Shown piece by piece: positions 3,001-43,700 of a DNA stretch of 64,000 nucleotides (within the stretch, counting starts at the first letter, position 1; every line of letters starts with the position of its first letter). The DNA lies in assembly GCA_023205875.1 (NCBI GenBank), contig CP060761.1:744001-808000 (forward strand), written 5' to 3'. The notes under the pieces were generated by a model that made no database searches, had not been told where the DNA came from, and saw nothing but the letters and a program-made list of their open reading frames with translations. The position numbers and the translations under genes are program-made. This DNA comes from Chloropicon primus (taxonomy: Eukaryota).

Positions 3001-3375
3001 AGCTGTATAGGGATTTGGATCCACAGGCACAAAGTACATCAGCTTGCTATAATCGAATGCAGATATGCCAACAAAAATACCGATTTCCTGCGACAACCCC
3101 ACTCCATCTTGAACTTCTGTGTACAACTGCAAAATGAATCTCTGCTGTGGATCCATCACAAGAGACTCGCTGGATGAAAGCTTGAAGGCATGTGCATCAA
3201 AGTTCTCTACTTGTGGGATGAAGCTGCCAAAGTATGATCCAGCTGAACCAGCCATCCACCCAGATGATTCACAGTCACCTCGGGAATATGGTTCCACAGT
3301 ATCAATTCCACAAGTGGATGCAAGTGAATCCATACCAAGGGAACAATGGCTTCCAATGGATGTAATGGCAATCGT
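1..3375 (-). other. Module 14 (partial): KS-DH-ER...
   Basis: DTACSSS (about 2915), HGTGT, intact DH, ER nearly identical to M12 ER; cut by the window edge. Confidence 0.88.
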
Positions 3376-12300: not shown

Positions 12301-15300
12301 TGGAACAGACGTTATGGCATCACCTATACCGGCACCAGGCTTCATCGTCGTTGCAACAGGAAGGAGTGCACTGAAACTATTTAGAGCGACACACCTTGTG
12401 ACTCCCATCTCTGCACTTGGAAGAACCTCGTGTAGTTCCTGCACACTCTTGCCTTCTTGGAGGCCCAACTCACCACAAATGAAAGTGGTCAAAGCATTGA
12501 TGCTGGGATAGTCCAGGATCACAGTGCTTGGCAGTTGGACTCCAACAGAAGACGAAATAGTGTTGCGCAACTCCACAACACCAAGGGAATCAAGGCCAGC
12601 CTCCATCAATGGCACATCGTCCCCAAAGTCAAGTCCTGAAATATTTGTCAGTGCTCTTGAAATGGATTCTTGGATATTCTTTCTCTCAACAGCGGAGGAA
12701 TGGACGTTAGGGGCAGCAACTGGAACAACTGGAACAACAGCTTCAGGGGTCACCGACACTTGGCCAAGCACATAGGGTTTGCCCTGAACAAGGGACGAAA
12801 ACAAATTCCAGTAGTTGGGACTTGTGTAAATCAAGTTGCAGGTATACCTGGGAGCACCAACGACCGTTGAAAGAACATTCAGACCTGATGTCGGCAATAT
12901 GATTCCAAAATCTTTGGATAGACGAGCAAGTCTCTCTTTTGATACTTTCTCTCCCTGTGTAACCATACCAATAGACCCCCAAACGCCCCATTGGAAGTTC
13001 ATGCTTGGGAGGCCGCACAATTGAGTAGATTTGCACACAAAATCAAGAGCCGCATTGGATGCGGAATAGGATGTGTACTTTGGATTTCCAAGGGCAGATG
13101 CAAGTGAAGAGAAGTGCACAGTCGCACCTAGTGCAGCTGACCAAGATCCTGCTTGAATCCATTGAGCTCCTCTCAGCTTGGGTGACAAGGATCCACGCAT
13201 GTGAGATGGAGACTGGTTGCCCAAAATAGCATCAATCAGCACACCAGCAGCATGGACCACCATGCCCAGCGGATAGAGGTCATCGCATCTCTCCATCATC
13301 CACCAAGATGCTTCTTCCCGCACCGAGACATCACATCTTGCCATGGACACACTCATATCTCCAGCACGGAGTTCTTCTGGGCATGTCCTTGACTTTCCTG
13401 TGCGTCCAAGCAATCCTAGGGAAGAACCTAAGGACGATCTCACACACCAGCCACCAACCATTTGACCAATGCCGCTCAAGCCACCAGTCACGACATGGCG
13501 CCTTCCCTTCCCAAGATGGTGGGAACCATTCATGACAGCGTGTGTCTGCGTAGTATCTCTCTGCAAGGTCAATTGAGGCAGGTACAAACTGCCGTTGTCC
13601 ATGCTGCAGCCAAACACATCCACGGTTACATCCATGGCATAGCTCTTTGAGCTGAACTGCAAACCACGGGCGGAAGCGCTTGGGTGTAAAGGACTCGTGT
13701 CAACGCCACCACACTGGACGCTGGTGCACTCAAGAGCTATGCTACGCAACATGGCCCAAGACATGTATCCACTGGCTCCGTGATCCTTGTGAAGTCCCGC
13801 CGGACTTGCAGATGTGTCCAAGGAACCGGAACTGTGCATCCAAAGTGCGTCCGTGCCCTTCTCAACGAGATCCTGCATACCTGCAAGGATATGATGCGGG
13901 CAGATTGCACTCTCTTCCACATGAAGCTGTGTTGCAGGTTCTGAAGCCGTCAAAACATCCGAGGATACAACAGGTGTTTGAGCATACCAACAGATGTTGT
14001 ACAATTTGCAGGCATCCAAGATGTCGCGAGAAGACGAGACTCCACCGACCGTAGGGATGGAAATATCTTCTTTGCTGCTGATCACACGGAAGCTCAACTT
14101 GTCCACAAGGCATGGGGATGCGTCAATCTGAGAGGACTGAGTTACTCTTCCTACTTCAGTTGCACTACCCACCGCATGCAGACTCACTCCAAGGCTTGAA
14201 GTGCTCAGAATGCACGCCTCAACAGATGCTGGAATGCGAGCTTGCAATTCAAAGCCATCACTGGAGGATGAGGTCACACTGTCCATCAAGTGCAAAGATG
14301 ACTCCAAAGAACCTACACCTTGCAAAGCGTGTTCATCTTCAAAGCTCGGCTGGCATGGAACAAGCTTACCTTGTCCTGCACTGCCTGACTGACCCAGGTA
14401 AAGACGCGCACCGTCCAACACTTCATGGTGTTCTGTGGAGGTGCTGCTATCGACCGTGTCAAGATTGTGTGCGCTGCAAGTCATGTGTGGACTGTTGGTT
14501 CCCTCATCTTTTGACCTTACCAGAACATTGCCAGACGACAAGGCCACCTCACACTGAACCACGCCAGAAGAGACTGCTTCACCTGACAAGGCCAGCGTTG
14601 ATGTAAACAACACACGCACAAGCCAGGGCCTGCTGTCGCTGTTGGCATGCAACATTTCCATGGTCTTTGCAGCCATGGCCACAAAAGCAGAAGCGCAAAG
14701 CACTTGTCGGCCACAAACATCATACTCGTTCAAGGAAGCCAACAGAGGGTGGCCAATCAAGCAAGTCTCCACCGTCGCTGTATTGGTGGATCTTGACGAA
14801 AGAACGAACTGTTCTACCAATAAGGAGCGTTGGTGGGATACAATCCAGCAACGCACGCCCTTCCAAGTAGAGCTCATGCTCCTACGGTCCTTGTGACTCG
14901 CGTTCAACAAAGAACCGTTTGATGGAGTCAACAAGGCATGTGCATTTGTTCCTTGGAAGGCAAAGCCACTTGCTCCATACACACTCTGGACACCTGACTC
15001 CGAATCGGAACACTCAGCAGAGGAATAGCGTGGCAGTTGCACTGATTTGCCTCCCTTTTGTGCTTGAGCCTCCAAAACATTGACCACAAGAGGATTCACG
15101 TCCCGCAGATGCAGGAGTGGGCTCTGTGTGCCCATCACAAGGGGACCAAACAATTGTAGAATCCCAGACAGACCAGCAGCGGCCTCGGAGTGACCAACAC
15201 AAGACTTCACAGCAGAAAGGGCAAGTGGAGTTTGTGACTTGGTGCCTCCAAGCAACACTGCGCTCAGGGCACCCACTTCAACTGGGTCGCCCAAAGACGT

Positions 15301-16737
15301 GCCTGTTCCATGCATTTGCAAGCCAAATACATCTTCGGGAGATAAGTGTGCACTCTGCAGGGCTCTTTGCAGAACCATCTGCTGCGATGGACCGTTTGGA
15401 GCTGTCAAGGAACTGGATCTGCCATCTTGATTCACAGCACTGCCCACCATGGACACGCAATGTGCATCTGCCATGGCTTCAGAAGTTCCATCGACAATAA
15501 CACTCTGGCAAGCTTCTGCACGGACATAGCCATCTGCACTTTGATCCAATGTCTTACACCTACCATCAGCAGAAAGCATACTCGCAATGCTTACGACGAC
15601 AAGAGACGTGCTGGCAAGCATCAAATTCACACCACATGCCATACTGATTGGAGCTGACATGGTCATCGCTGATTGCCAGGCCATAAACAAGCCTACAAGA
15701 GATGATGAGCATGCTGTATCTATGCTCACACACGGACCTTGCAGTCCATACTTGTAAGACAAACGACCAGCTGCTACACTGAAAGCACTACCTGTTGCCA
15801 TCAATGGACTGAGTGGCATGTTGTGGTCCTTCATCAGACCATTGTATTCCATGTGCTCAATACCAACATAGACACCCATCTTCTCTCGACGACGCTGGAT
15901 GTTGCTTGAGTCCTGAGCATCATTCAGTACGCAACTTTGCATAGACTCCCAACTCACTTGCAGAAGCAATCTCTGCTGAGGATCACACAGCGAAGCTTCG
16001 GTCACTGACATTCCAAAACAAGCAGTGTCGAACGTGGAAACGTCCTTCAAAAGACCTGCAAATCGTGCTGTTAGCTGACCACTTGGCATCATTGCTTCAC
16101 TTCGCTCAAGATCCCAACGTCCAAATGGAACAGACGTTATGGCATCACCTATACCGGCACCAGGCTTCATCGTCGTTGCAACAGGAAGGAGTGCACTGAA
16201 ACTATTTAGAGCGACACACCTTGTGACTCCCATCTCTGCACTTGGAAGAACCTCGTGTAGTTCCTGCACACTCTTGCCTTCTTGGAGGCCCAACTCACCA
16301 CAAATGAAAGTGGTCAAAGCATTGATGCTGGGATAGTCCAGGATCGCAGTGCTTGGCAGTTGGACTCCAACAGAAGACGAAATAGTGTTGCGCAACTCCA
16401 CAACACCAAGGGAATCAAGACCAGCCTCCATCAACGGTGTGTTGATATCAATATCTTGCTGGAGTAGTCGCTGTACAGATTGAGATACTTGTTCAATGAT
16501 TGGTTGCACCTCGTGTTGGGATCTCACTACACGCTTTTCTTGGTGTGGTTTTGGAATCTCATCTACAATACTCGCTGGACATATCTGCTTGAAGAAAGAG
16601 GGGCACTTTGTACTTGAGCTTAAGACGTTGCTCCAGAATGCAGCTTGGTTTGCACATACAGTACCTTCTTCCTTCATGTGTAAACAAGAGGATAGAATTG
16701 AGAGACCAGAATCAGGGCTGATCGCTGCTAGTCCCAT
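1..16737 (-). CDS. PKS segment 6 (about 5579 aa, runs off window): M10 ACP, M11, M12, M13, M14 partial
   Basis: Spot translation in one frame: DHQVMGRIVCPGAAY (about 10930, 5950, 1910), GLNFRDVLNVLGAYPG (about 9420, 400), FVTGGLGALG (about 8520, 4520), GLDSL (about 7600, 3585), LVHSAAGGIG (about 85). Not every codon was checked by hand. Confidence 0.88.
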   Translation of the reverse strand, partial: MGLAAISPDSGLSILSSCLHMKEEGTVCANQAAFWSNVLSSSTKCPSFFKQICPASIVDEIPKPHQEKRVVRSQHEVQPIIEQVSQSVQRLLQQDIDINTPLMEAGLDSLGVVELRNTISSSVGVQLPSTAILDYPSINALTTFICGELGLQEGKSVQELHEVLPSAEMGVTRCVALNSFSALLPVATTMKPGAGIGDAITSVPFGRWDLERSEAMMPSGQLTARFAGLLKDVSTFDTACFGMSVTEASLCDPQQRLLLQVSWESMQSCVLNDAQDSSNIQRRREKMGVYVGIEHMEYNGLMKDHNMPLSPLMATGSAFSVAAGRLSYKYGLQGPCVSIDTACSSSLVGLFMAWQSAMTMSAPISMACGVNLMLASTSLVVVSIASMLSADGRCKTLDQSADGYVRAEACQSVIVDGTSEAMADAHCVSMVGSAVNQDGRSSSLTAPNGPSQQMVLQRALQSAHLSPEDVFGLQMHGTGTSLGDPVEVGALSAVLLGGTKSQTPLALSAVKSCVGHSEAAAGLSGILQLFGPLVMGTQSPLLHLRDVNPLVVNVLEAQAQKGGKSVQLPRYSSAECSDSESGVQSVYGASGFAFQGTNAHALLTPSNGSLLNASHKDRRSMSSTWKGVRCWIVSHQRSLLVEQFVLSSRSTNTATVETCLIGHPLLASLNEYDVCGRQVLCASAFVAMAAKTMEMLHANSDSRPWLVRVLFTSTLALSGEAVSSGVVQCEVALSSGNVLVRSKDEGTNSPHMTCSAHNLDTVDSSTSTEHHEVLDGARLYLGQSGSAGQGKLVPCQPSFEDEHALQGVGSLESSLHLMDSVTSSSSDGFELQARIPASVEACILSTSSLGVSLHAVGSATEVGRVTQSSQIDASPCLVDKLSFRVISSKEDISIPTVGGVSSSRDILDACKLYNICWYAQTPVVSSDVLTASEPATQLHVEESAICPHHILAGMQDLVEKGTDALWMHSSGSLDTSASPAGLHKDHGASGYMSWAMLRSIALECTSVQCGGVDTSPLHPSASARGLQFSSKSYAMDVTVDVFGCSMDNGSLYLPQLTLQRDTTQTHAVMNGSHHLGKGRRHVVTGGLSGIGQMVGGWCVRSSLGSSLGLLGRTGKSRTCPEELRAGDMSVSMARCDVSVREEASWWMMERCDDLYPLGMVVHAAGVLIDAILGNQSPSHMRGSLSPKLRGAQWIQAGSWSAALGATVHFSSLASALGNPKYTSYSASNAALDFVCKSTQLCGLPSMNFQWGVWGSIGMVTQGEKVSKERLARLSKDFGIILPTSGLNVLSTVVGAPRYTCNLIYTSPNYWNLFSSLVQGKPYVLGQVSVTPEAVVPVVPVAAPNVHSSAVERKNIQESISRALTNISGLDFGDDVPLMEAGLDSLGVVELRNTISSSVGVQLPSTVILDYPSINALTTFICGELGLQEGKSVQELHEVLPSAEMGVTRCVALNSFSALLPVATTMKPGAGIGDAITSVPFGRWDLERSEAMMPSGQLTARFAGLLKDVSTFDTACFGMSVTEASLCDPQQRLLLQVSWESMQSCVLNDAQDSSNIQRRREKMGVYVGIEHMEYNGLMKDHNMPLSPLMATGSAFSVAAGRLSYKYGLQGPCVSIDTACSSSLVGLFMAWQSAMTMSAPISMACGVNLMLASTSLVVVSIASMLSADGRCKTLDQSADGYVRAEACQSVIVDGTSEAMADAHCVSMMGSAVNQDGRSSSLTAPNGPSQQMVLQRALQSAHLSPEDVFGLQMHGTGTSLGDPVEVGALSAVLLGGTKSQTPLALSAVKSCVGHSEAAAGLSGILQLFGPLVMGTQSPLLHLRDVNPLVVNVLEAQAQKGGKSVQLPRYSSAECSDSESGVQSVYGASGFAFQGTNAHVLFARSYFNFESRLCGQRLSKVVRCWMCPKPHLLFSNGVVKGANIVLYHKWSVTSFRSISDHQVMGRIVCPGAAYMEMGGCVSEICNGTMGTQLKSLVLHASIPMPLTLAKPHETQNGLVEDCELSVLVDMEQGDIEIRSSNSLQGGSGLHLRACIGLKLDEHVHVSSSVGSAYDKSVSASPEIVRGQCSQSVDSTAMYASLYSVGLQYGPHFQVVSRLNVASNGKHVFGCLSGTSGTDESGMSVPPAVLDGCMHLGVGLRDESSSESSKDAKVPAGFSVYSIASDLSGQNIFGVAVRGKAASPDQSNTTLSSHYILDVDGSIASKLQDLQTKSIKPSMRTSPVVGKAMGNIYVMSWQSSMVKPQAVPATTLISKSHLFRVHLSNASICVEGGESHEHTYLNAVGAFLSIAQSVPLLKGSGKEMLLKTFGSVLESQMGMGCANVYKGCALSASLRGLLRSVRSEQRNVSWPCVDLGKGESDESLSTWWNENEGHEIVVRSQFVNVARLLNESYVPPSGLVQIVPRPRGALSNLVTDQVKLESPPLGILLVEVISVGLNFRDVLNVLGAYPGDPGPPGSDVSGIVVQVHLGGKSLQPQPLTVGSAVAGLASGCLGSHTYTHHQVVVPIPKAATFVEACTMITVFTTVDVAMCHAASLPSNAGQAVLVHSAAGGIGLAACQVVHALGGEMWATAGSSLKRHLLRSMGVQHVVSSRSTRYADLGQTAYNGQVEGMGLILNSLTSSGMVGASLSCLHLGGQLVEIGKRDIWSASGVHRERPDVVYSLLAVDFLPPARTHQALCRLAGGIAEGAVSGLRSTSHTLNGVQAALRWLAGAKHVGKVVVSQGLGTTSLLSMQESGCSFVTGGLGALGSLVGQWAAQHMTPDLRLAGRSGHYRLPVDMDKSKSALLSLQDPSSSAVFCAIRCDAGSQEECSSALSWPGLDMPLAQVMHAGGLLSDMLLGSQSMQSVRTVFAPKVDALHHLHARSWGHSVSSQLLFSSVASLLGSAGQSNYSAANAYLDTWSSAMESQGGCATSIQWGGWSGGGMALRDPSTTARLERVGMPALSGEDGLCLLASITKYSLFGLCKRFSTVTGVMFDWKKFLSRMTLKLNIFESWHMRSVTQSVTRQRPQTEVTARRIVDVGKVIEDVMLLVSPIIGDIGVDDPLFDAGLDSLTAIEFQNSLQQKYDISIPATIVFDFPSVGAISRYIHDAMFEEHNVPLGFDVDDEVNAPTNNLKIVHYGLKTGGPYRNEGAVCIDRVSRYFRNDMENLGWVPNETGSYFCALLRDVAHFDTGVFSINASEATVMDPQQRLILASTYPLIAHTSEETSVYVGLSNQDYIRIFSYSGRREVNPKLGTANSPSVAAGRISYMYGLTGPSLSVDTACSSSLVGTHLAMQSLFATECHAALSIGVNLTLAPDTGQIFKQAGMLALDGRCKTLDASADGYVRGEACGALCIKRFGKDEGVAFVELKGSAVNQDGRSSALTAPNGPAQQKVITSAVNNAALDLGNLEGFQLHGTGTPLGDPIEIGALDRVLSLRRKDISDSGRSENGTPALLMACKTSVGHTESAAGIASLIVTLSTIEQHVSHSILHLRSINVHLEKMMSANTNDAKASRPCYALPRQSTSRSSPLSQSGCPTGISSFAFQGTNAHVLMSLPIGCNNINCSLSFQSVAWESNRYWILPLTHPLMSAVEVRKNTGSDIIALSSKLQRPILEWICDHQVMGRIVCPGAAYMEMGGCVSEICNGTMGTQLKSLVLHASIPMPLTLAKPHETQNGLVEDCELSVLVDMEQGDIEIRSSNSLQGGSGLHLRACIGLKLDEHVHVSSSVGSAYDKSVSASPEIVRGQCSQSVDSTAMYASLYSVGLQYGPHFQVVSRLNVASNGKHVFGCLSGTSGTDESGMSVPPAVLDGCMHLGVGLRDDESSSESSKDAKVPAGFSVYSIASDLSGQNIFGVAVRGKAASPDQSNTTLSSHYILDVDGSIASKLQDLQTKSIKPSMRTSPVVGKAMGNIYVMSWQSSMVKPQAVPATTLISKSHLFRVHLSNASICVEGGESHEHTYLNAVGAFLSIAQSVPLLKGSGKEMLLKTFGSVLESQMGMGCANVYKGCALSASLRGLLRSVRSEQRNVSWPCVDLGKGESDESLSTWWNENEGHEIVVRSQFVNVARILQGAYVYPDQGFLSDFVMGTFGCSFVTGGLGALGSLVGQWAAQHMTPDLRLAGRSGHYRLPVDMDKSKSALLSLQDPSSSAVFCAIRCDAGSQEECSSALSWPGLDMPLAQVMHAGGLLSDMLLGSQSMQSVRTVFAPKVDALHHLHARSWGHSVSSQLLFSSVASLLGSAGQSNYSAANAYLDTWSSAMESQGGCATSIQWGGWSGGGMALRDPSTTARLERVGMPALSGEEGLSVLKSVLYENSSHRFGSPCVSNAVVSAVPFVWDKFLAGVGESKVFDNFRKATSVSIESSSSQVPVQRSGKVRFQKEAIISSVGALAASVVGREISAEEPLMEAGLDSLGTVEFNNALQQRFGIDLPATLIFDYPSISMIGNHLSDILAPEDAQGGDVLSSKPESAVPDARGLKDGITIAITSIGSHCSLGMDSLASTCGIDTVEPYSRGDCESSGWMAGSAGSYFGSFIPQVENFDAHAFKLSSSESLVMDPQQRFILQLYTEVQDGVGLSQEIGIFVGISAFDYSKLMYFVPVDPNPYTATANAASVAAGRASFFYGLTGPSLSVDTACSSSLVGTHLAMQSLFATECHAALSIGVNLTLAPDTGQVLKQAGMLALDGRCKTLDASADGYVRGEACGALCIKRFGKDEGVAFVELKGSAVNQDGRSSALTAPNGPAQQKVITSAVNNAALDLGNLEGFQLHGTGTPLGDPIEIGALDRVLSLRRKDISDSGRSENGTPALLMACKTSVGHTESAAGIASLIVTLSTIEQHVSHSILHLRSINVHLEKMMSANTNDAKASRPCYALPRQSTSRSSPLSQSGCPTGISSFAFQGTNAHVLMSLPIGCNNINCSLSFQSVAWESNRYWILPLTHPLMSAVEVRKNTGSDIIALSSKLQRPILEWICDHQVMGRIVCPGAAYMEMGGCVSEICNGTMGTQLKSLVLHASIPMPLTLAKPHETQNGLVEDCELSVLVDMEQGDIEIRSSNSLQGGSGLHLRACIGLKLDEHVHVSSSVGSAYDKSVSASPEIVRGQCSQSVDSTAMYASLYSVGLQYGPHFQVVSRLNVASNGKHVFGCLSGTSGTDESGMSVPPAVLDGCMHLGVGLRDDESSSESSKDAKVPAGFSVYSIASDLSGQNIFGVAVRGKAASPDQSNTTLSSHYILDVDGSIASKLQDLQTKSIKPSMRTSPVVGKAMGNIYVMSWQSSMVKPQAVPATTLISKSHLFRVHLSNASICVEGGESHEHTYLNAVGAFLSIAQSVPLLKGSGKEMLLKTFGSVLESQMGMGCANVYKGCALSASLRGLLRSVRSEQRNVSWPCVDLGKGESDESLSTWWNENEGHEIVVRSQFVNVARLLNESYVPPSGLVQIVPRPRGALSNLVTDQVKLESPPLGILLVEVISVGLNFRDVLNVLGAYPGDPGPPGSDVSGIVVQVHLGGKSLQPQPLTVGSAVAGLASGCLGSHTYTHHQVVVPIPKAATFVEACTMITVFTTVDVAMCHAASLPSNAGQAVLVHSAAGGIGLAACQVVHALGGEMWATAGSSL

Positions 16738-19700
16738 ACTTTCAAACCTTTTGACACAACCTTGTTAGAGGCCATACCAACTGCCTTCCAAATACCCCAC
16801 TGGATGGCCAAAGAAGCAATACCAGACATTTTCTGTCTGTTACTCATCATCTCCAAGCCTGAATTCGAGCAAGCATAGTTAATCTGACCAGGACTTCCAA
16901 CCAAAGAAGAAATGGATGAGAAGTGCACAGTCGCACCTAGTGCAGCTGACCAAGATCCTGCTTGAATCCATTGAGCTCCTCTCAGCTTGGGTGACAAGGA
17001 TCCACGCATGTGAGATGGAGACTGGTTGCCCAAAATAGCATCAATCAGCACACCAGCAGCATGGACCACCATGCCCAGCGGATAGAGGTCATCGCATCTC
17101 TCCATCATCCACCAAGATGCTTCTTCCCGCACCGAGACATCACATCTTGCCATGGACACACTCATATCTCCAGCACGGAGTTCTTCTGGGCATGTCCTTG
17201 ACTTTCCTGTGCGTCCAAGCAATCCTAGGGAAGAACCTAAGGACGATCTCACACACCAGCCACCAACCATTTGACCAATGCCGCTCAAGCCACCAGTCAC
17301 GACATGGCGCCTTCCCTTCCCAAGATGGTGGGAACCATTCATGACAGCGTGTGTCTGCGTAGTATCTCTCTGCAAGGTCAATTGAGGCAGGTACAAACTG
17401 CCGTTGTCCATGCTGCAGCCAAACACATCCACGGTTACATCCATGGCATAGCTCTTTGAGCTGAACTGCAAACCACGGGCGGAAGCGCTTGGGTGTAAAG
17501 GACTCGTGTCAACGCCACCACACTGGACGCTGGTGCACTCAAGAGCTATGCAGCGCAACATGGCCCAAGACATGTATCCACTGGCTCCGTGATCCTTGTG
17601 AAGTCCCGCGGGACTTGCAGATGTGTCCAAGGAACCGGAACTGTGCATCCAAAGTGCGTCCGTGCCCTTCTCAACGAGATCCTGCATACCTGCAAGGATA
17701 TGATGCGGGCAGATTGCACTCTCTTCCACATGAAGCTGTGTTGCAGGTTCTGAAGCCGTCAAAACATCCGAGGATACAACAGGTGTTTGAGCATACCAAC
17801 AGATGTTGTACAATTTGCAGGCATCCAAGATGTCGCGAGAAGACGAGACTCCACCGACCGTAGGGATGGAAATATCTTCTTTGCTGCTGATCACACGGAA
17901 GCTCAACTTGTCCACAAGGCATGGGGATGCGTCAATCTGAGAGGACTGAGTTACTCTTCCTACTTCAGTTGCACTACCCACCGCATGCAGACTCACTCCA
18001 AGGCTTGAAGTGCTCAGAATGCACGCCTCAACAGATGCTGGAATGCGAGCTTGCAATTCAAAGCCATCACTGGAGGATGAGGTCACACTGTCCATCAAGT
18101 GCAAAGATGACTCCAAAGAACCTACACCTTGCAAAGCGTGTTCATCTTCAAAGCTCGGCTGGCATGGAACAAGCTTACCTTGTCCTGCACTGCCTGACTG
18201 ACCCAGGTAAAGACGCGCACCGTCCAACACTTCATGGTGTTCTGTGGAGGTGCTGCTATCGACCGTGTCAAGATTGTGTGCGCTGCAAGTCATGTGTGGA
18301 CTGTTGGTTCCCTCTTCTTTTGACCTTACCAGAACATTGCCAGACGACAAGGCCACCTGACACTGAACCACGCCAGAAGAGACTGCTTCACCTGACAAGG
18401 CCAGCGTTGATGTAAACAACACATGCACAAGCCAGGGCCTGCTGTCGCTGTTGGCATGCAACATTTCCATGGTCTTTGCAGCCATGGCCACAAAAGCAGA
18501 AGCGCAAAGCACTTGTCGGCCACAAACATCATACTCGTTCAAGGAAGCCAACAGAGGGTGGCCAATCAAGCAAGTCTCCACCGTCGCTGTATTGGTGGAT
18601 CTTGACGAAAGAACGAACTGTTCTACCAATAAGGAGCGTTGGTGGGATACAATCCAGCAACGCACGCCCTTCCAAGTAGAGCTCATGCTCCTACGGTCCT
18701 TGTGACTCGCGTTCAACAAAGAACCGTTTGATGGAGTCAACAAGGTATGTGCATTTGTTCCTTGGAAGGCAAAGCCACTTGCTCCATACACACTCTGGAC
18801 ACCTGACTCCGAATCGGAACACTCAGCAGAGGAATAGCGTGGCAGTTGCACTGATTTGCCTCCCTTTTGTGCTTGAGCCTCCAAAACATTGACCACAAGA
18901 GGATTCACGTCCCGCAGATGCAGGAGTGGGCTCTGTGTGCCCATCACAAGGGGACCAAACAATTGTAGAATCCCAGACAGACCAGCAGCGGCCTCGGAGT
19001 GACCAACACAAGACTTCACAGCAGAAAGGGCAAGTGGAGTTTGTGACTTGGTGCCTCCAAGCAACACTGCGCTCAGGGCACCCACTTCAACTGGGTCGCC
19101 CAAAGACGTGCCTGTTCCATGCATTTGCAAGCCAAATACATCTTCGGGAGATAAGTGTGCACTCTGCAGGGCTCTTTGCAGAACCATCTGCTGCGATGGA
19201 CCGTTTGGAGCTGTCAAGGAACTGGATCTGCCATCTTGATTCACAGCACTGCCCACCATGGACACGCAATGTGCATCTGCCATGGCCTCAGAAGTTCCAT
19301 CGACAATAACACTCTGGCAAGCTTCTGCACGGACATAGCCATCTGCACTTTGATCCAATGTCTTACACCTACCATCAGCAGAAAGCATACTCGCAATGCT
19401 TACGACGACAAGAGACGTGCTGGCAAGCATCAAATTCACACCACATGCCATACTGATTGGAGCTGACATGGTCATCGCTGATTGCCAGGCCATAAACAAG
19501 CCTACAAGAGATGATGAGCATGCTGTATCTATGCTCACACACGGACCTTGCAGTCCATACTTGTAAGACAAACGACCGGCTGCTACACTGAAAGCACTAC
19601 CTGTTGCCATCAATGGACTGAGCGGCATGTTGTGGTCCTTCATCAGACCATTGTATTCCATGTGCTCAATACCAACATAGACACCCATCTTCTCTCGACG

Positions 19701-34700: not shown

Positions 34701-37700
34701 AAATTCACACCACATGCCATACTGATTGGAGCTGACATGGTCATCGCTGATTGCCAGGCCATAAACAAGCCTACAAGAGATGATGAGCATGCTGTATCTA
34801 TGCTCACACACGGACCTTGCAGTCCATACTTGTAAGACAAACGACCAGCTGCTACACTGAAAGCATTACCTGTTGTCATCAATGGACTGAGTGGCATGTT
34901 GTGGTCCTTCATCAGACCATTGTATTCCATGTGCTCAATACCAACATAGACACCCATCTTCTCTCGACGACGCTGGATGTTGCTTGAGTCCTGAGCATCA
35001 TTCAGTACGCAACTTTGCATAGACTCCCAACTCACTTGCAGAAGCAATCTCTGCTGAGGATCACACAGCGAAGCTTCGGTCACTGACATTCCAAAACAAG
35101 CAGTGTCGAACGTGGAAACGTCCTTCAAAAGACCTGCAAATCGTGCTGTTAGCTGACCACTTGGCATCATTGCTTCACTTCGCTCAAGATCCCAACGTCC
35201 AAATGGAACAGACGTTATGGCATCACCTATACCGGCACCAGGCTTCATCGTCGTTGCAACAGGAAGGAGTGCACTGAAACTATTTAGAGCGACACACCTT
35301 GTGACTCCCATCTCTGCACTTGGAAGAACCTCGTGTAGTTCCTGCACACTCTTGCCTTCTTGGAGGCCCAACTCACCACAAATGAAAGTGGTCAAAGCAT
35401 TGATGCTGGGATAGTCCAGGATCACAGTGCTTGGCAGTTGGACTCCAACAGAAGACGAAATAGTGTTGCGCAACTCCACAACACCAAGGGAATCAAGACC
35501 AGCCTCCATCAACGGTGTGTTGATATCAATATCTTGCTGGAGTAGTCGCTGTACAGATTGAGATACTTGTTCAATGATTGGTTGCACCTCGTGTTGGGAT
35601 CTCACTACACGCTTTTCTTGGTGTGGTTTTGGAATCCCATCTACAATGCTCGCTGGACATATCTGCTTGAAGAAAGAGGGGCACTTTGTACTTGAGCTTA
35701 AGACGTTGCTCCAGAATGCAGCTTGGTTTGCACATACAGTACCTTCTTCCTTCATGTGTAAACAAGAGGATAGAATTGAGAGACCAGAATCAGGGCTGAT
35801 CGCTGCTAGTCCCATACTTTCAAACCTTTTGACACAACCTTGTTAGAGGCCATACCAACTGCCTTCCAAATACCCCACTGGATGGCCAAAGAAGCAATAC
35901 CAGACATTTTCTGTCTGTTACTCATCATCTCCAAGCCTGAATTCGAGCAAGCATAGTTAATCTGACCAGGACTTCCAACCAAAGAAGAAATGGATGAGAA
36001 GTGCACAGTCGCACCTAGTGCAGCTGACCAAGATCCTGCTTGAATCCATTGAGCTCCTCTCAGCTTGGGTGACAAGGATCCACGCATGTGAGATGGAGAC
36101 TGGTTGCCCAAAATAGCATCAATCAGCACACCAGCAGCATGGACCACCATGCCCAGCGGATAGAGGTCATCGCATCTCTCCATCATCCACCAAGATGCTT
36201 CTTCCCGCACCGAGACATCACATCTTGCCATGGACACACTCATATCTCCAGCACGGAGTTCTTCTGGGCATGTCCTTGACTTTCCTGTGCGTCCAAGCAA
36301 TCCTAGGGAAGAACCTAAGGACGATCTCACACACCAGCCACCAACCATTTGACCAATGCCGCTCAAGCCACCAGTCACGACATGGCGCCTTCCCTTCCCA
36401 AGATGGTGGGAACTATTCATGACAGCGTGTGTCTGCGTAGTATCTCTCTGCAAGGTCAATTGAGGCAGGTACAAACTGCCGTTGTCCATGCTGCAGCCAA
36501 ACACATCCACGGTTACATCCATGGCATAGCTCTTTGAGCTGAACTGCAAACCACGGGCGGAAGCGCTTGGGTGTAAAGGACTCGTGTCAACGCCACCACA
36601 CTGGACGCTGGTGCACTCAAGAGCTATGCTACGCAACATGGCCCAAGACATGTATCCACTGGCTCCGTGATCCTTGTGAAGTCCCGCGGGACTTGCAGAT
36701 GTGTCCAAGGAACCGGAACTGTGCATCCAAAGTGCGTCCGTGCCCTTCTCAACGAGATCCTGCATACCTGCAAGGATATGATGCGGGCAGATTGCACTCT
36801 CTTCCACATGAAGCTGTGTTGCAGGTTCTGAAGCCGTCAAAACATCCGAGGATACAACAGGTGTTTGAGCATACCAACAGATGTTGTACAATTTGCAGGC
36901 ATCCAAGATGTCGCGAGAAGACGAGACTCCACCGACCGTAGGGATGGAAATATCTTCTTTGCTGCTGATCACACGGAAGCTCAACTTGTCCACAAGGCAT
37001 GGGGATGCGTCAATCTGAGAGGACTGAGTTACTCTTCCTACTTCAGTTGCACTACCCACCGCATGCAGACTCACTCCAAGGCTTGAAGTGCTCAGAATGC
37101 ACGCCTCAACAGATGCTGGAATGCGAGCTTGCAATTCAAAGCCATCACTGGAGGATGAGGTCACACTGTCCATCAAGTGCAAAGATGACTCCAAAGAACC
37201 TACACCTTGCAAAGCGTGTTCATCTTCAAAGCTCGGCTGGCATGGAACAAGCTTACCTTGTCCTGCACTGCCTGACTGACCCAGGTAAAGACGCGCACCG
37301 TCCAACACTTCATGGTGTTCTGTGGAGGTGCTGCTATCGACCGTGTCGAGATTGTGTGCGCTGCAAGTCATGTGTGGACTGTTGGTTCCCTCATCTTTTG
37401 ACCTTACCAGAACATTGCCAGACGACAAGGCCACCTCACACTGAACCACGCCAGAAGAGACTGCTTCACCTGACAAGGCCAGCGTTGATGTAAACAACAC
37501 ATGCACAAGCCAGGGCCTGCTGTCGCTGTTGGCATGCAACATTTCCATGGTCTTTGCAGCCATGGCCACAAAAGCAGAAGCGCAAAGCACTTGTCGGCCA
37601 CAAACATCATACTCGTTCAAGGAAGCCAACAGAGGGTGGCCAATCAAGCAAGTCTCCACCGTCGCTGTATTGGTGGATCTTGACGAAAGAACGAACTGTT

Positions 37701-40700
37701 CTACCAATAAGGAGCGTTGGTGGGATACAATCCAGCAACGCACGCCCTTCCAAGTAGAGCTCATGCTCCTACGGTCCTTGTGACTCGTGTTCAACAAAGA
37801 ACCGTTTGATGGAGTCAACAAGGCATGTGCATTTGTTCCTTGGAAGGCAAAGCCACTTGCTCCATACACACTCTGGACACCTGACTCCGAATCGGAACAC
37901 TCAGCAGAGGAATAGCGTGGCAGTTGCACTGATTTGCCTCCCTTTTGTGCTTGAGCCTCCAAAACATTGACCACAAGAGGATTCACGTCCCGCAGATGCA
38001 GGAGTGGGCTCTGTGTGCCCATCACAAGGGGACCAAACAATTGTAGAATCCCAGACAGACCAGCAGCGGCCTCGGAGTGACCAACACAAGACTTCACAGC
38101 AGAAAGGGCAAGTGGAGTTTGTGACTTGGTGCCTCCAAGCAACACTGCGCTCAGGGCACCCACTTCAACTGGGTCGCCCAAAGACGTGCCTGTTCCATGC
38201 ATTTGCAAGCCAAATACATCTTCGGGAGATAAGTGTGCACTCTGCAGGGCTCTTTGCAGAACCATCTGCTGCGATGGACCGTTTGGAGCTGTCAAGGAAC
38301 TGGATCTGCCATCTTGATTCACAGCACTGCCCATCATGGACACGCAATGTGCATCTGCCATGGCCTCAGAAGTTCCATCGACAATAACACTCTGGCAAGC
38401 TTCTGCACGGACATAGCCATCTGCACTTTGATCCAATGTCTTACACCTACCATCAGCAGAAAGCATACTCGCAATGCTTACGACGACAAGAGATGTGCTG
38501 GCAAGCATCAAATTCACACCACATGCCATACTGATTGGAGCTGACATGGTCATCGCTGATTGCCAGGCCATACATAAGCCTACAAGAGATGATGAGCATG
38601 CTGTATCTATGCTCACACACGGACCTTGCAGTCCATACTTGTAAGACAAACGACCGGCTGCTACACTGAAAGCACTACCTGTTGCCATCAATGGACTGAG
38701 CGGCATGTTGTGGTCCTTCATCAGACCATTGTATTCCATGTGCTCAATACCAACATAGACACCCATCTTCTCTCGACGACGCTGGATGTTGCTTGAGTCC
38801 TGAGCATCATTCAGTACGCAACTTTGCATAGACTCCCAACTCACTTGCAGAAGCAATCTCTGCTGAGGATCACACAGCGAAGCTTCGGTCACTGACATTC
38901 CAAAACAAGCAGTGTCGAACGTGGAAACGTCCTTCAAAAGACCTGCAAATCGTGCTGTTAGCTGACCACTTGGCATCATTGCTTCACTTCGCTCAAGATC
39001 CCAACGTCCAAATGGAACAGACGTTATGGCATCACCTATACCGGCACCAGGCTTCATCGTCGTTGCAACAGGAAGGAGTGCACTGAAACTATTTAGAGCG
39101 ACACACCTTGTGACTCCCATCTCTGCACTTGGAAGAACCTCGTGTAGTTCCTGCACACTCTTGCCTTCTTGGAGGCCCAACTCACCACAAATGAAAGTGG
39201 TCAAAGCATTGATGCTGGGATAGTCCAGGATCACAGTGCTTGGCAGTTGGACTCCAACAGAAGACGAAATAGTGTTGCGCAACTCCACAACACCAAGGGA
39301 ATCAAGACCAGCCTCCATCAATGTGCAGTTGGGCTCGATATCTCTTCCTATGATGCTGTTGATCTGTGTTTGTATATTGCGTTGGACTTCTTCTTTCCCC
39401 GTTGTCGCGTTGTTATGTAATCGTTGTGGCTGCTTCTGGCTCTTAAGGGATTTTTCAATGCCAACAAGACGTTGAAAACTTTCATTGATTTTCGATATTG
39501 TTTCGATGTAAGCCCTTGTTGATGCAGATACTGTGGATTGGATGTTTGCTGACTTCATTCTTTGCTCGAGATATGCCAGACAAGAGACAGGGGATATATA
39601 CTCTATAGTACTGGAGTTCCTTCCTTCAAATTTTGTCATCATGCCAATTCCCGCTATTGCACCCCACTGAATAGCATGTACACAACTTCCCATGCTGAAT
39701 GATCTTGATGAAAGCAAGTCCACAACGGCATTCGCAGCAGCATAATTGACATTGCCGCTGTTCCCAAAAACAGAAGATAACGATGAGAAAGTGACTAATG
39801 CCACGCCATCAAGAACTTCGGACACAAAATTCAAAAACTGCACTTTCGGGGCCATACAGGTCAACAACGACGATATATCTTGCAGTTTCAAACTCGCACT
39901 CAAAAGAACACCAGCAGCATGGACCACCATGCCCAGCGGATAGAGGTCATCGCATCTCTCCATCATCCACCAAGATGCTTCTTCCCGCACCGAGACATCA
40001 CATCTTGCCATGGACACGCTCATATCTCCAGCACGGAGTTCTTCTGGGCATGTCCTTGACTTTCCTGTGCGTCCAAGCAATCCTAGGGAAGAACCTAAGG
40101 ACGATCTCACACACCAGCCACCAACCATTTGACCAATGCCGCTCAAGCCACCAGTCACGACATGGCGCCTTCCCTTCCCAAGATGGTGGGAACTATTCAT
40201 GACAGCGTGTGTCTGCGTAGTATCTCTCTGCAAGGTCAATTGAGGCAGGTACAAACTGCCGTTGTCCATGCTGCAGCCAAACACATCCACGGTTACATCC
40301 ATGGCATAGCTCTTTGAGCTGAACTGCAAACCACGGGCGGAAGCGCTTGGGTGTAAAGGACTCGTGTCAACGCCACCACACTGGACGCTGGTGCACTCAA
40401 GAGCTATGCTGCGCAACATGGCCCAAGACATGTATCCACTGGCTCCGTGATCCTTGTGAAGTCCCGCGGGACTTGCAGATGTGTCCAAGGAACCGGAACT
40501 GTGCATCCAAAGTGCGTCCGTGCCCTTCTCAACGAGATCCTGCATACCTGCAAGGATATGATGCGGGCAGATTGCACTCTCTTCCACATGAAGCTGTGTT
40601 GCAGGTTCTGAAGCCGTCAAAACATCCGAGGATACAACAGGTGTTTGAGCATACCAACAGATGTTGTACAATTTGCAGGCATCCAAGATGTCGCGAGAAG

Positions 40701-43700
40701 ACGAGACTCCACCGACCGTAGGGATGGAAATATCTTCTTTGCTGCTGATCACACGGAAGCTCAACTTGTCCACAAGGCATGGGGATGCGTCAATCTGAGA
40801 GGACTGAGTTACTCTTCCTACTTCAGTTGCACTACCCACCGCATGCAGACTCACTCCAAGGCTTGAAGTGCTCAGAATGCACGCCTCAACAGATGCTGGA
40901 ATGCGAGCTTGCAATTCAAAGCCATCACTGGAGGATGAGGTCACACTGTCCATCAAGTGCAAAGATGAGTCTATTTGAGCATGTGGTGTGGATAAGTATG
41001 GTTTTGCAATGTTTGCATATGATTCGAAGTAGGGTCCGCAGTTGAAAGCGATATCTGCACCGTATCTTGGATTTTCTGCATGAATCAATTGTGTGGGGGG
41101 GGTTGAAACGTGCCCATCCAGCAATGATAAATTGTGCACATGTTCATTGGATAGGTGTAGGATAACTTTTCCCGTGGCGTTTATGCTGATTGTGCATCGC
41201 GTTGCATATTTCATAATGCTCTTGCTGTTACATTCACCAACAGCAAAAAGTTCCATGAAATTGCAATCAGTCACTAGTGCAGTAGTAGAATACTCGAGAA
41301 ACGCATCCAATACTTCATGAACGATGGTAATAGCAGTGCTACAGGGCAGAAACTTTCTTCCGTGAAGCTCAGAAACCACTTCAGATACTTTGCTGACTTT
41401 CAGGTTTTCTCCTTCAACCAAAAGGATTCCTTCTGATGGATATCGAAAGCTCTGGAATACTGCACAAGTAAATTCTCCTCTGTTCAATGATTCTTTGGAT
41501 TCCTGCCAAATAGAATACTTCTTTTCGATACTCGAATGAAGCTGATCTTGGGCTTCAGAACACACAATGTGGGCATTTGTTCCTTGGAAAGCAAATGAAT
41601 TGATGCCAACACTCCTGGTGCGGTTGTCATTTTGGGGACATGAATATGTCTCCCTAGGCATAAGCATAAACTCGCTGGTGTCACTTGCAATCGAATCAAG
41701 CATATACGAAATATGGCGGTTCAATGTCCTCAAATGTGAAATTGGTAGGGAATGCTTCTTGAAAATGCTTTTTTGTGCAAGGTAGAACCCTGCAAGGCCT
41801 GCTGCAGCTTCAGCATGTCCTATGTTGGATTTGTCCGCTGAAATAATTTTGGGCTGAATCGCACTTTCTTGAGATTGCCGCGAAAAGTAGTCATGCAGAG
41901 ATGTGATTTCAATGGGATCTCCTAGTGCTGTTCCAGTGCCATGAAGGAAGATACTCATCAGATCGTTCGCGTCAATGTCTGCAAAGATGTGGGCTTCGGC
42001 AATGACAGCCTTTTGGGATGGACCGTTAGGCGCAGTAAGTGAGCTTGCCCTTCCATCCTGATTCACAGATGACCCTGAGAATAAAACAGCATTATCAACA
42101 ATTTCTTCTGATTGGACTATTCTCAAGCAAGTGCATGCCTCTGCCCTGACATATCCATCCGCAGTATTATCGAGAGCTTTACAACGCCCTTCTTCTGAGA
42201 GCAGGCTCGCAGCATCAAAAATCCCTGTGACCCATTTTGAAATCATAACATTCACTCCACTGCAGAGGGCAGAGGACATAGTTCCATGGAGGAAGTTTGT
42301 ATACGCCATGTGTACTCCGACCAAGCTTGATGAGCATGCCGTGTCAATACTAAGAGCTGGCCCATTCAAACCGAATTGGTAAGATAATCTACCTGCTGCT
42401 ACACTGAGCCCCGTACCAGTTGCAATGTACGGAGTCAACGGAAGCTTGAAATGCTGAATCAAAGCACTGTGATCGTGTGTTGCAATGCCAACAAATGATC
42501 CGCAAGACTTCCTAGAATCATCCACAAGACAGCTTGCAGAGAGCTTCAGAAGCAAGCGCTGTTGTGGGTCTGTAGCCATTGCTTCGCTCTTCGTGAAAGA
42601 GAATGCAGAGTAGTCGAACATGTGAACATCGGTCATGAAACCCCCAAAATTGTAGTCCAGTTTTGAACCATGGCCCTCGTTCGCATCCCATCTGTCTACA
42701 GGAACAAGACTAATTGCATCACAAGCAGTGCCTTTCCTAGCCTCACGAGCATAGGGGAGTTGAGATGCAATATCCACAATGTAGTGAAGGTATTCCTTTC
42801 TTGTCGCTCCTCTTGTGATTTCTTTGGCTTGAACTTGCACAGTAGTGTTCGGAGCCATGTAGCTGACAATAGCTGAGATGGATGGGTAGTCAAACACAAG
42901 AGTTCCAGGCAAGGCCACGCCAAGAACATTCTCTAAAGAATTTCTCAACTCCACGGCACCTAATGAATCGATGCCAGCAGCAACGAGCGGACTATCAATG
43001 GGCACCTGACTTCCAAGAATGCTGTACACGACATTTTGCACATCCTCCTGCATCTTTCGAATAGTCTGAGATGATACCATTTCTTCTTGAGGCTGCCTTG
43101 ATTTTCTTTCACCTTCAATGATCGCTTCAAAGCTCTCCTCTTCCTTTGCTGCTCGGCAGAGTTGTGGTTGAAAGTTCACAGCTTTTGAGAACTTTTTCCA
43201 CGTAATTGGTGCAACAGCGAAGACTGGGGAGATGGGAATGATGCATCTTTGTAAGAGCAGCTCGAATGAAAAGAGACCATCCATGGGATGCACTGGCGCC
43301 ATCCCCAAACGAAGCAGTCTCTCCTTCATGCCCATGCTTCTAGCCATACCGATGTTTCCCCAGGCTCCCCATTGAATGGAATAAGAGGATTTACCAAAAC
43401 TATGCGAGGATGTCATGTAACTATCCAAGTAAGCATTTGCAGCGCTATACGCAATTTGACCGGCGGAACCAAGAAGCGCGGCGATAGAAGAAAACCCTAT
43501 ATCTGTGTGTACCGCTAATGACCAGGACGTATTTGAAGCATTCTGCACACCCCTACATTTGGGAGAGAATACACTCATCACTTGATCGTACCTCTGCTGC
43601 AGTACTGTAGCATCGCGAAGGATCCCCGCACCGTGAAGCACAATCAACTCGTTTGTCTCGGTCTGCAAGAGAGGGGAGCTACAAAGGTTATCTTGGCAAG

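Follow-up and report, generated by a model that had tools for sequence, protein, structure and literature searches.

In bacterial PKSs for polyene and polyhydroxy macrolides, runs of KS-(DH0)-KR-ACP modules whose dehydratase (DH) domains lack the catalytic His give 1,3-polyols. Among green algae, knockout of the Chlamydomonas reinhardtii PKS1 gene (Heimerl et al. 2018, as relayed by citing papers) reportedly affects the zygospore wall. Natural inactive DHs are listed in a review, which in its accessible part states that loss of the DH His abolishes activity in natural PKSs and that His-to-Phe inactivation of monensin DHs succeeded in only four of six cases (PMC7327777). Giant AT-less PKSs with duplicated modules (OluPKS3, OtaPKS1 and MicPKS2) have been described in chlorophytes (Shelest et al. 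2015, PMC4661987, available text), and in Mamiellales giant PKS loci are reported to lie in low-GC outlier regions (10.1101/2025.04.21.649811, available text). In the available text on PKZILLA-1 of Prymnesium parvum, modules M1–M7 are read as giving a hexol, which fits prymnesin, and dehydrating bimodules are described in AT-less PKSs (10.1101/2024.01.29.577497). Here we describe eight consecutive modules (M4–M11) of a giant AT-less PKS in the marine green picoalga Chloropicon primus. With rather more confidence than doubt, we predict that this run gives the growing chain a 1,3-polyol tract with as many as eight hydroxyls at even intervals.

The stretch of DNA analysed, a window of 64,000 nt, is filled almost wholly by this gene (Table 1), which runs on the minus strand over more than 21,000 codons from a first ATG at 63228 to an open end at window base 1, through a chain of stop-free frames (63243->35809->29222->26460->24446->16731->1), and which a named Chloropicon primus protein matches at 100% identity. 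In Pfam, a loading AMP-binding domain and ACP precede 14 KS-bearing modules, and 14 KS Cys motifs were counted; no acyltransferase family was matched in any scanned piece of the gene. Domain calls for the flanking modules agree with those made in the earlier note: M1 is KS-DH-KR, M2 carries in-line HCS/ECH for beta-branching and M3 is KS-DH-ER-KR, whereas beyond the run M12 is KS-DH-ER-KR, M13 KS-DH-KR and M14 KS-DH-ER. The span previously given for the run, 12467–42790, likewise fits the module limits found here, 12436–42885.

Table 1. Coordinates of the PKS gene, its repeated modules and associated features in the window
Feature	Coordinates	Strand	Basis or remark
Giant AT-less modular type I PKS gene	1..63228	-	stop-free frames and Pfam domains
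M4: own KS4, hybrid DH relic, KR cassette C, ACP	39148..42885	-	Pfam, alignment
M5: KS5, DH relic, KR cassette B, ACP	35339..39147	-	frame break near 35831
M6: KS6, DH relic, KR cassette B, ACP	31529..35338	-	fully in frame
M7: KS7, DH relic, KR cassette A, ACP	27705..31528	-	frame break near 29342
M8: KS8, DH relic, KR cassette A, ACP	23880..27704	-	
M9: KS9, DH relic, KR cassette B, ACP	20070..23879	-	in frame
M10: KS10, DH relic, KR cassette B, ACP	16261..20069	-	frame break near 16753
M11: KS11, DH relic, KR cassette A, ACP	12436..16260	-	in frame, 1275 aa
KS12, last repeat-type KS, part of fully reducing M12	11105..12435	-	repeat stops at 11105
DH-derived domain of M6, 331 aa	32969..33961	-	EYDVCGRQVLC 33805-33773, LESSLHLMD 33385-33359
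Five 1-bp frame breaks (~35831, 29342, 26666, 24486, 16753)	16753..35831	-	copy-by-copy alignment
Tandem array of 3.81-kb unit (DH-like C-half, KR, ACP, next KS)	11105..40971	-	blastn
Type A copy (499 nt) of the swapped cassette; type B has 484 nt	27879..28377	-	blastn gap

All motif strings quoted in the earlier note were found on the minus strand. EYDVCGRQVLC is present in seven of the seven expected modules, M5–M11 (37614–37582, 33805–33773, 29995–29963, 26170–26138, 22346–22314, 18536–18504 and 14727–14695), and SELHGRKFLP occurs once, in M4 (41373–41344), whereas the presumed active DHs read DHVIFGRKLFP in M1 (59454–59422), DHIVLSRVVIP in M3 (46110–46078) and DHQVMGRIVCP in M12–M14 (three copies, at 10932, 5955 and 1911). 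Alignment of nine DH regions bore out the His-to-Tyr and Pro-to-Cys changes claimed for M5–M11; in M4 the His column holds Ser, with a His three residues on and the Pro kept. A second catalytic motif, which does not figure in the earlier note, reads LMDCCLQ (M1), YLDAWLH (M3) and VLDGCMH (M12–M14) in the presumed active DHs, QIDSSLH in M4, where the Asp is kept, and SLESSLH in M5–M11, where it is replaced by Glu (LESSLHLMD in all seven). Even the M1 and M3 DHs, which are presumed to be active, depart from the usual pattern: both lack the YGP block, and M3 has Ser for Gly. The seven identical motifs all stem from duplication of a single unit, so the question of chance does not arise; the eight losses amount to one event and that in M4, and are not independent.

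Profile, Atlas and alignment evidence upheld the view that the KS–KR spacer is what is left of a dehydratase, with the catalytic His missing. In M6, the reference module (1270 aa), Pfam placed KS at residues 39–385, KR at 922–1095 and ACP at 1194–1256, and the DH-like part covers 460–790. This relic matched the His-bearing DHs of the same gene (hhalign, 91.7%, E 7.6e-7, 288 columns), and 30 of its 30 Atlas matches were PKS/FabA dehydratase families (best 0.97). The sole Pfam family at E<=10 was PKS_DH_N (13.8 bits, E 0.057; cut-off 27), matched over the profile region that M1 and M3 also match. M11 gave KS, KR and ACP without DH; M4 gave KS, KR and PP-binding, and a threshold relaxed to E<=10 brought up no DH family. 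The M4 relic has an N-half of its own, with SELHGRKFLP, and IDSSLHLMD at 40974–40948; HAAGVLLSA lies in M4 at 39921–39895. The ancestral module was evidently KS-DH-KR-ACP. Two structure models had pLDDT values (33.7 and 41.7) too low for use.

Among 1.84 billion representatives the M6 relic had eight matches. The metagenomic relative P0131 is 87.3% identical to the window module in KS and 85.3% in ACP, but only 63.0% in the DH N-half and 44.0% in the C-half, much as in the linkers (57.5–66.7%); in P0135 the KR core is at 91.4% (only 35 aligned residues) and the relic at 55.9–62.5%. The low relic identity relative to KS, ACP and KR suggests that constraint on the relic is relaxed. In the fragments, conservation within the relic is highest at the (E/D)SSLHL block, and the Tyr, Cys, Glu and His of the two motifs recur in each of the two relatives spanning these positions (HQYNIFGRNVLC and LESSLHLVD in one, HEYDVCGRQVLC and LESSLHLMD in the other), so the site may still be used. 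The residues point to an inactive dehydratase, for which the conserved positions make some role possible.

The KRs of all eight modules look intact, as previously claimed: the glycine-rich NADPH motif VVTGGLSGIG is present in eight of eight, an alignment of every KR type of the gene shows Lys, Ser, Tyr and Asn without variation, and the type-specific Tyr motifs add up to eight (four B, three A and one in M4). The repeat unit recurs in about eight copies at spacings of 3809, 3810, 3824, 3825 or 3826, with 99.5–100% identity over 3.3 kb apart from one swapped cassette, which takes in the Ser/Tyr/Asn catalytic region of the KR and the linker, as far as the start of the ACP. Between cassette types blastn found no match over unit positions 1508–1977, and protein identity is 44/163 (A–B), 36/153 (B–C) and 39/155 (A–C); all three types retain K, S, Y and N. 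A short-read contig joint omits the 499 and 484 letters between. KS5–KS12 are 98–100% identical to each other, except for KS8 (90%, owing to its frame break), and share only 42% identity with KS4. That these KSs, each downstream of a relic-KR-ACP, are near identical and KS4 is not implies that the substrates they accept share one beta-function.

Relic spacers, intact-looking KRs and flanking domains as read make a colinear (CHOH-CH2)n product reasonable. Malonate would be loaded by a free-standing acyltransferase and the modules would work in order, once each; in each of M4–M11 the relic, lacking the His, would not dehydrate, and the beta-hydroxyl would stay. The KRs of M5–M11, which have the LxD motif of the B type, would set one configuration and yield an isotactic tract. 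A wall-polymer (polyvinyl-alcohol-like) or membrane-active role of the product is a guess; the wall idea leans on the analogy with Chlamydomonas reinhardtii PKS1.

The earlier colinear reading stands as regards relics, KRs and flanking modules, but the length of eight is uncertain: eight modules lie in the window (cassettes C-B-B-A-A-B-B-A from M4 to M11), yet their repeats are near identical, and the public Chloropicon primus protein P0130 has the unit order B-B-A-B, absent from the window's B-B-A-A-B-B-A, with some 30-mers not found in the window. It is quite possible that the tract is real and its length another, the array being mis-assembled or varying between haplotypes or strains. The genome, assembled from PacBio RS II data whose subread N50 was 4.89 kb, and described in the available text as largely diploid (PMC6731263), would allow this, as would contig depths that are nearly equal for A and B (34/31.7, 572.8/569.9 and 582.6/605.8, against 3 A and 4 B in the window), although by the tool's own caution depth is not copy number. 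The tandem arrangement is nonetheless confirmed by contigs that wrap from 30197 to 26373 in three of three DNA runs (the RNA status of runs being the tool's guess), P0130 has at least four consecutive relic modules, and a copy number above about four would leave the qualitative prediction as it is. The earlier note is silent on the five frame breaks. Were they real, the gene would be a decaying pseudogene and no full-length enzyme would be made, which we hold to be very unlikely. Five frame changes fall inside 20 kb, every one within domains (those of M8 near 26666 in KS8 and near 24486 in KR), and P0130 likewise ends in an out-of-frame tail; but each is a 1-bp indel in a short single-base run that the sister copies lack, the catalytic motifs of KS, KR and ACP are intact, and more than 63 kb of sequence is free of stop codons and of any other damage. 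None of the five was seen in short-read contigs, which can lose minority variants: the in-frame form occurs at full depth at 26667 and 29339 in contigs of four of four runs, and for the other three sites A-specific (574-nt) and B-specific (559-nt, 484-nt insert) contigs match in-frame copies without gaps. A Chloropicon primus variant table holds at least two 1-bp indels at ~0.95 allele frequency in PKS CDSs (62 of 72 rows), not placed on the window. The breaks are probably assembly errors and the gene whole.

AT-less PKSs can also break colinearity, dehydration being performed by another module or in trans. The chain could be dehydrated after all, by an active Tyr/Glu relic, by the M12 DH, whose His is present, or by a free-standing DH, to give a polyene or an ene/ol mixture. 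B-type KRs are the usual partners of dehydratases and commonly feed them, the ancestral module evidently had a DH, and the Tyr, Glu and His motifs persist in relatives; FabZ-type hotdog dehydratases use Glu. To our knowledge, however, no hotdog dehydratase is known in which Tyr replaces the catalytic His; in relatives, no part of the module is less conserved than the relic, which falls below the Pfam cut-off; and KS5–KS12 have the complete C-H-H set of a ketosynthase, unlike the KS0 found in dehydrating bimodules. We regard dehydration as unlikely, even though dehydration by a neighbouring module is described for AT-less PKSs (10.1101/2024.01.29.577497, available text) and His-to-Phe mutants are sometimes still active (PMC7327777, available text). 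Alternatively, the relic may have taken on a non-dehydrating task, in architecture or in docking of a trans-AT or the next module, and the hydroxyls would stay. Such a task would suit a domain that all eight modules and the relatives retain at full length and in which motif blocks are conserved, and DH-like domains whose active sites are altered reportedly acquire new activities; yet the known neofunctionalised ones keep His and lose Asp (PMC7327777, available text), whereas here the His is lost, and overall relic conservation is low. We consider this reading doubtful.

The 1,3-polyol reading that we prefer has an algal AT-less precedent in PKZILLA-1 M1–M7, where successive KR-containing, non-dehydrating modules are likewise read colinearly as a polyol. 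That reading was matched to a known product, whereas the present one is predicted from sequence; PKZILLA-1 belongs to a haptophyte and the Chloropicon gene, with its clonal modules, to a green alga. The available text describes M1–M7 as KR reduction between extensions and does not use the word 'inactive' (10.1101/2024.01.29.577497). With the chlorophyte PKSs, as far as the available texts describe them, the Chloropicon gene shares a megadalton, single-gene form without integrated AT, a product predicted at most, size driven by module repetition, strain-to-strain variation and recently duplicated modules (89–100% identity there, 99.5–100% here); with the Mamiellales loci it shares low GC (~50% in the window against 57.5% in the genome; PMC6731263). 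Chloropicon, however, belongs to another class, Chloropicophyceae, and the best Mamiellales match has 44% identity over 28% of the module. It has eight copies in a row, whereas the chlorophyte papers in their available parts describe two to four, and these parts deal with neither inactive dehydratases nor a polyol (the words 'inactive', 'polyol', 'hydroxyl' and 'HMG' are all absent from that of PMC4661987). Chlamydomonas reinhardtii PKS1, likened here by description, is also a green-algal giant type I PKS, and in the sources available its knockout is the sole experimental link of such a gene to the wall. As in bacterial polyol PKSs, the DH lacks its catalytic His and the beta-hydroxyl is predicted to be left; the bacterial enzymes are cis-AT with mutually diverged modules, whereas that of Chloropicon is AT-less and eukaryotic, with seven clonal modules.

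The gene is carried by six long minus-strand reading frames in succession, neighbours sharing a few codons, on which Pfam finds PKS domains exclusively. Fourteen KS domains (PF00109/PF02801), with KR, DH, ER and PP-binding domains in module order, identify a multi-module single polypeptide. No AT family, including Acyl_transf_1, was detected at E ≤ 1e-5 on the six ORF pieces or at E ≤ 0.01 on 13 pieces (16261-16737 lying outside that scan), and the GHSxG motif is absent from the PKS gene; on these grounds the enzyme is classed as AT-less (trans-AT). GC content is about 50% over the whole window. In a search limited to very long proteins, the sole match was P0130, a public C. primus protein of 5,550 aa named Chloropicon primus polyketide synthase (100% over 421 queried residues). 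Among proteins of 2,224-5,000 aa the top matches are again green algal: a Bathycoccus protein covers 28% of a module at 44% identity, a second C. primus PKS is also in this group, and so are proteins of Parachlorella, a pedinophyte, Tetraselmis and Picochlorum. The parts of PMC6731263 available to us describe a C. primus PKS family of 12 members, its genes located on chromosomes 3, 5 and 8 where GC is low.

Positions of the features in the window, with domain content of the modules (Pfam)
Feature	Strand	Position	Content
Frame 1	-	63243-35809	
Frame 2	-	35842-29222	
Frame 3	-	29390-26460	
Frame 4	-	26707-24446	
Frame 5	-	24485-16731	
Frame 6	-	16764-1	
Loading part			AMP-binding + ACP
M1			KS-DH-KR-ACP
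KS1	-	59700-60954	GTNAN at third triad motif
M2	-	47596-57225	KS, several enoyl-CoA hydratase domains, two HMG-CoA-synthase domains with ACPs; in-line beta-branching set
Duplications in M2		51764-54830	Period 1440 nt, 100% identity
HCS-ACP repeat in M2		47654-49185 vs 49304-50835	1650 nt, 99.9%
M3			KS-DH-ER-KR-ACP
M4-M11			KS, 500-residue spacer, KR, ACP
Tandem array		~40971 to 11105	Direct repeats of 3809-3826 nt
Cassette, one copy		27879-28377	KR catalytic Ser through linker to ACP start
Frame breaks		35831 and 16753 (same unit site), 29342, 26666, 24486	1-bp gain or loss
M12-M14	-	1-12435	
M12			KS-DH-ER-KR-ACP
M13			KS-DH-KR-ACP
M14			KS-DH-ER, cut by window end
Copies in M12-M14		569-2987 vs 4613-7031	99.4%
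Copies in M12-M14		1-1911 vs 9025-10932	99.6%
Copies in M12-M14		3905-4546 vs 7904-8545	99.5%
Upstream of ATG	+	63659-63956	125-nt stretch repeated 174 nt apart, 98.4%; GC-richer (60%)
164-aa ORFs (7)	+	14112, 17921, 21731, 25555, 29380, 33190, 36999 (span 14112-37493)	Antisense to the array

Outside M4-M11 the modules show features of their own. In KS1, Asn replaces the second catalytic His found in the GTNAH or GVNSH motif elsewhere, which may leave this first KS unable to elongate. M2 holds a complete beta-branching machinery in line (about four to five enoyl-CoA hydratase domains and two HMG-CoA synthase-ACP pairs); fusion of the HCS into a PKS polypeptide is, to our knowledge, unusual. 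M2 also carries recent duplications, KS2 and KS3 are 75% identical overall with one common 815-nt stretch at 99.5%, and M12-M14 are likewise recent copies of one another. The gene is a patchwork of homogenised repeats throughout, beyond M4-M11.

The earlier note had called the DHs of eight successive modules, M4-M11, dead, and every motif string that it quoted is present at the implied position. Alignment of nine DH regions bears out the loss of the catalytic His throughout M4-M11, whereas loss of the catalytic Asp holds for M5-M11 and fails for M4. At the His of HxxxGxxxxP all seven modules M5-M11 carry Tyr, with Cys in the Pro column; M4 carries Ser, retains the Pro and has a His three residues further on. 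The second catalytic motif, DxxxQ/H, which the earlier note had left out, is present in M1, M3 and M12-14 and reads ESSLH, with Glu for Asp, in seven of seven modules M5-M11, and DSSLH in M4 only.

Several comparisons bear on the origin of this spacer, here called the relic. PKS_DH_N is the only Pfam family on the relic of M6, the reference module, at 13.8 bits (E 0.057, below the cut-off of 27), and its match falls on the stretch of the profile that M1 and M3 also match; the M4 spacer has no Pfam family match. When relic and fragments were combined into one profile, hhalign aligned it with the profile of the gene's His-bearing DHs at 91.7% probability (E 7.6e-7, 288 columns), with both motifs in register. 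A language-model search of the ESM Atlas gave 30 neighbours, every one a PKS or FabA dehydratase cluster (top score 0.97, 178 shared features). HMMER over 1.84 billion representatives returned only eight proteins, each a short fragment with 44-60% identity; ordinary DHs were not among them, and sequence and profile searches of the PDB gave no match at E ≤ 10. AlphaFold2 models have mean pLDDT of 33.7 (single sequence) and 41.7 (14-row alignment), too poor for a fold claim; at those values, their strand order fits a double hotdog, as does a pair of long helices that follow the two motifs. We conclude from the profiles and motifs that the spacer descends from a DH, without the canonical His and, in M5-M11, without the Asp too. 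In the second C. primus PKS (P0095, 2719 aa), modules of KS-spacer-KR-ACP also have no Pfam DH family; one spacer, reading WQHLFNGRPIAG, keeps the His and has Gly in the Pro position; in the other, the corresponding site holds no His. Degenerate DH spacers may be common among the PKSs of this alga.

The other domains of M4-M11 appear intact. The direct repeats are built of a unit comprising the C-half of the relic, the KR, the ACP and the next KS, so the array provides the KRs of M4-M11 together with KS5-KS12. These KSs are 98-100% identical to one another (KS8 90%, owing to a frame break), and KS4 is 42% identical to them. The Cys-His-His triad (DTACSS, HGTGT, GTNAH) is complete in KS4-KS7 and KS9-KS12; in KS8 the third motif is masked by the frame break, in KS2 and KS3 it reads GVNSH, and the sequence examined stops before it in KS13 and KS14. 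Tandem Repeats Finder, with periods up to 500, reported nothing. The seven plus-strand ORFs of 164 aa, which recur at the unit period, are antisense by-products of the repeat and do not count as evidence of genes.

A handful of substitutions separates the unit copies outside a single cassette of some 165 residues, located at the matching site in each unit. It comes in three forms that are 24-27% identical (A-B 44/163, B-C 36/153, A-C 39/155), ordered C (M4), B, B, A, A, B, B, A along the gene, and is the one piece to escape homogenisation inside units otherwise 99.5-100% identical. Catalytic residues are present in all three forms. As the earlier note had stated, the KRs keep the NADPH motif (VVTGGLSGIG, 8/8), Lys and Tyr; K122, S145/146, Y159 and N163 are invariant, and by sequence the KRs of M4-M11 have the residues expected of active NADPH-dependent PKS ketoreductases. 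B-type KRs, which give D-hydroxyls, have the Asp of the LDD motif (LxD being the B-type signature) and lack the A-type Trp. All seven KRs of M5-M11 conform, with HAAGVLIDA and Val or Leu at the Trp position; that of M4, with HAAGVLLSA and Phe, does not.

Each of the five frame changes comes from one base pair inserted or deleted within a short single-base run, and sister copies are free of it; two of the five fall on one unit site. Introns were rejected as their source, as the sister copies align collinearly and contain no insert. Contigs built from the short reads of four runs (three from one sample, a possible source of this DNA, and one from another study) were placed on one unit. At 26667 and 29339 all four showed, at full depth, the in-frame form exclusively; an A-specific contig of 574 nt equals the in-frame copy without gaps, and a B-specific contig has the in-frame length of 484 letters in three of three DNA runs. 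Contigs thus answer two break sites directly and the remaining ones indirectly. Since contigs may lose minority variants (at 28796 one of the two bases of the window copies shows), support for the five breaks as assembly errors is good but not final. In the 62 of 72 rows available to us, the C. primus variant table (PMC6731263) lists at least two 1-bp indels at about 0.95 allele frequency in PKS coding sequences; such errors therefore exist in that assembly. Contigs of runs X4 and X6, whose RNA status is a guess, cover the unit at 99% or more and are not counted as expression.

A contig wrapping from unit end to unit start confirms the tandem arrangement. The eight successive modules of the earlier note are present in the window, but their number and order are provisional: P0130 is built from the same units in the order B-B-A-B, which does not occur here, and part of the 30-mers of P0130 are missing from the window. 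At least four consecutive relic modules occur in both records. A- and B-specific contigs have near-equal depth, which is not copy number, for three A and four B in the window. According to the accessible sections of PMC6731263, the assembly was made by merging Illumina contigs with PacBio RS II reads, whose subread N50 was 4.89 kb.

Two longer metagenomic proteins, P0131 and P0135, are cluster mates of the relic fragments and known as proteins alone. P0131 runs from ACP through KS and relic to the start of a KR, with motifs HQYNIFGRNVLC and LESSLHLVD; P0135 has HEYDVCGRQVLC and LESSLHLMD. Both have Tyr at the His position, and the shared Tyr, Cys, Glu and His mark those residues as old and conserved. 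Within the module, the relic has evolved fastest in these comparisons. Locus searches of a metagenome collection gave 134 pattern matches for the M6 relic and 69 for the query P0122, with no relative in either.

Identity of two metagenomic relatives to the window module (empty, not covered)
Part	P0131	P0135
KS	87.3%	
ACP	85.3%	
Post-KS linker	66.7%	
Relic N-half	63.0%	62.5%
Relic C-half	44.0%	55.9%
Linker plus structural KR part	57.5%	69.7%
KR core		91.4% (35 residues)

By colinearity, each of M4-M11 would add one malonate unit, loaded by a putative AT outside the modules; its KR would reduce the keto group, and the beta-hydroxy chain would be handed on, for a predicted output of (CHOH-CH2) up to eight times. 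Since KS5-KS12 are clonal, the intermediates would all bear the same beta-function. The order of flanking modules agrees with the earlier note in its Pfam domains: a saturated unit would precede the tract (M3), and a saturated then an enoyl unit would follow it (M12, M13). We think it somewhat probable, on the domain order and motifs, that the run M4-M11 writes a 1,3-polyol stretch. Contrary to this reading, the chain could be dehydrated despite the relic: B-type KRs are the usual partners of a DH, the Tyr, Glu and His of the relic motifs are conserved, and AT-less PKSs are known to break colinearity rules. Bearing on this, a review, in the part seen (PMC7327777), states that natural loss of the DH His abolishes activity and that, when the His of six monensin modules was mutated to Phe, the change was effective in just four. 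For PKZILLA-1, the portion of the preprint available (10.1101/2024.01.29.577497) indicates that a colinear reading of consecutive non-dehydrating modules matches the known product.

The relic might instead have another role. A pyran synthase or an enoyl isomerase was rejected, as these enzymes keep the DH His that is lost here; the available part of the review (PMC7327777) says likewise that they keep it. The conservation pattern, rapid divergence around a few constrained blocks, fits a non-catalytic structural remnant. Returning to the polyol, we hold improbable, as a whole, a wider reading in which Chloropicon would produce an amphiphilic lipid of great length containing an isotactic, polyvinyl-alcohol-like octa-ol segment, the length and stereo pattern of this segment being set by a clonal array of variable copy number; the three KR-to-ACP cassettes (C-B-B-A-A-B-B-A), the sole module differences, would encode stereochemistry or module order, and the AT-less architecture would depend on the conserved Tyr/Glu hotdog relic for structure or docking. 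The wall-polymer role guessed in the earlier note derives solely from analogy with Chlamydomonas PKS1, which excerpts of citing papers link to the zygospore wall.

Chloropicon is an abundant oceanic green picoalga. The locus yields a simple prediction, an evenly spaced run of hydroxyls after a beta-branch with saturated and unsaturated carbons on its flanks, which could steer mass-spectrometric and NMR searches in this cultured, ecologically important alga. The clonal array, with one swapped cassette per unit, is a natural experiment on module order, stereochemistry and the evolution of module number in AT-less lines. A literature search found no described Chloropicon polyketide and, preprint supplements being outside its scope, no 1,3-polyol prediction for green picoalgae; among the listed papers that name both Chloropicon and polyketide, no title or abstract concerned PKS domain logic. 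A term search of the available text of PMC4661987 and 10.1101/2025.04.21.649811 found no discussion of inactive dehydratases or a polyol.

Giant PKS genes of marine green picoalgae are described, in the parts of the sources at hand, as conserved and with products unknown (PMC4661987, 10.1101/2025.04.21.649811, 10.1101/2024.01.29.577497). Ostreococcus and Micromonas have giant AT-less PKSs with recently duplicated modules, as here (PMC4661987, in part), and the Mamiellales giant PKSs differ in size through module repetition, their products also unknown (10.1101/2025.04.21.649811, in part). As read from its domains, the locus reveals no new kind of enzyme, giant AT-less PKSs with duplicated modules being already known; its polyol prediction, drawn from bioinformatic evidence, is clear and testable. 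PKZILLA-1 is a haptophyte enzyme, whereas this gene belongs to a green alga.
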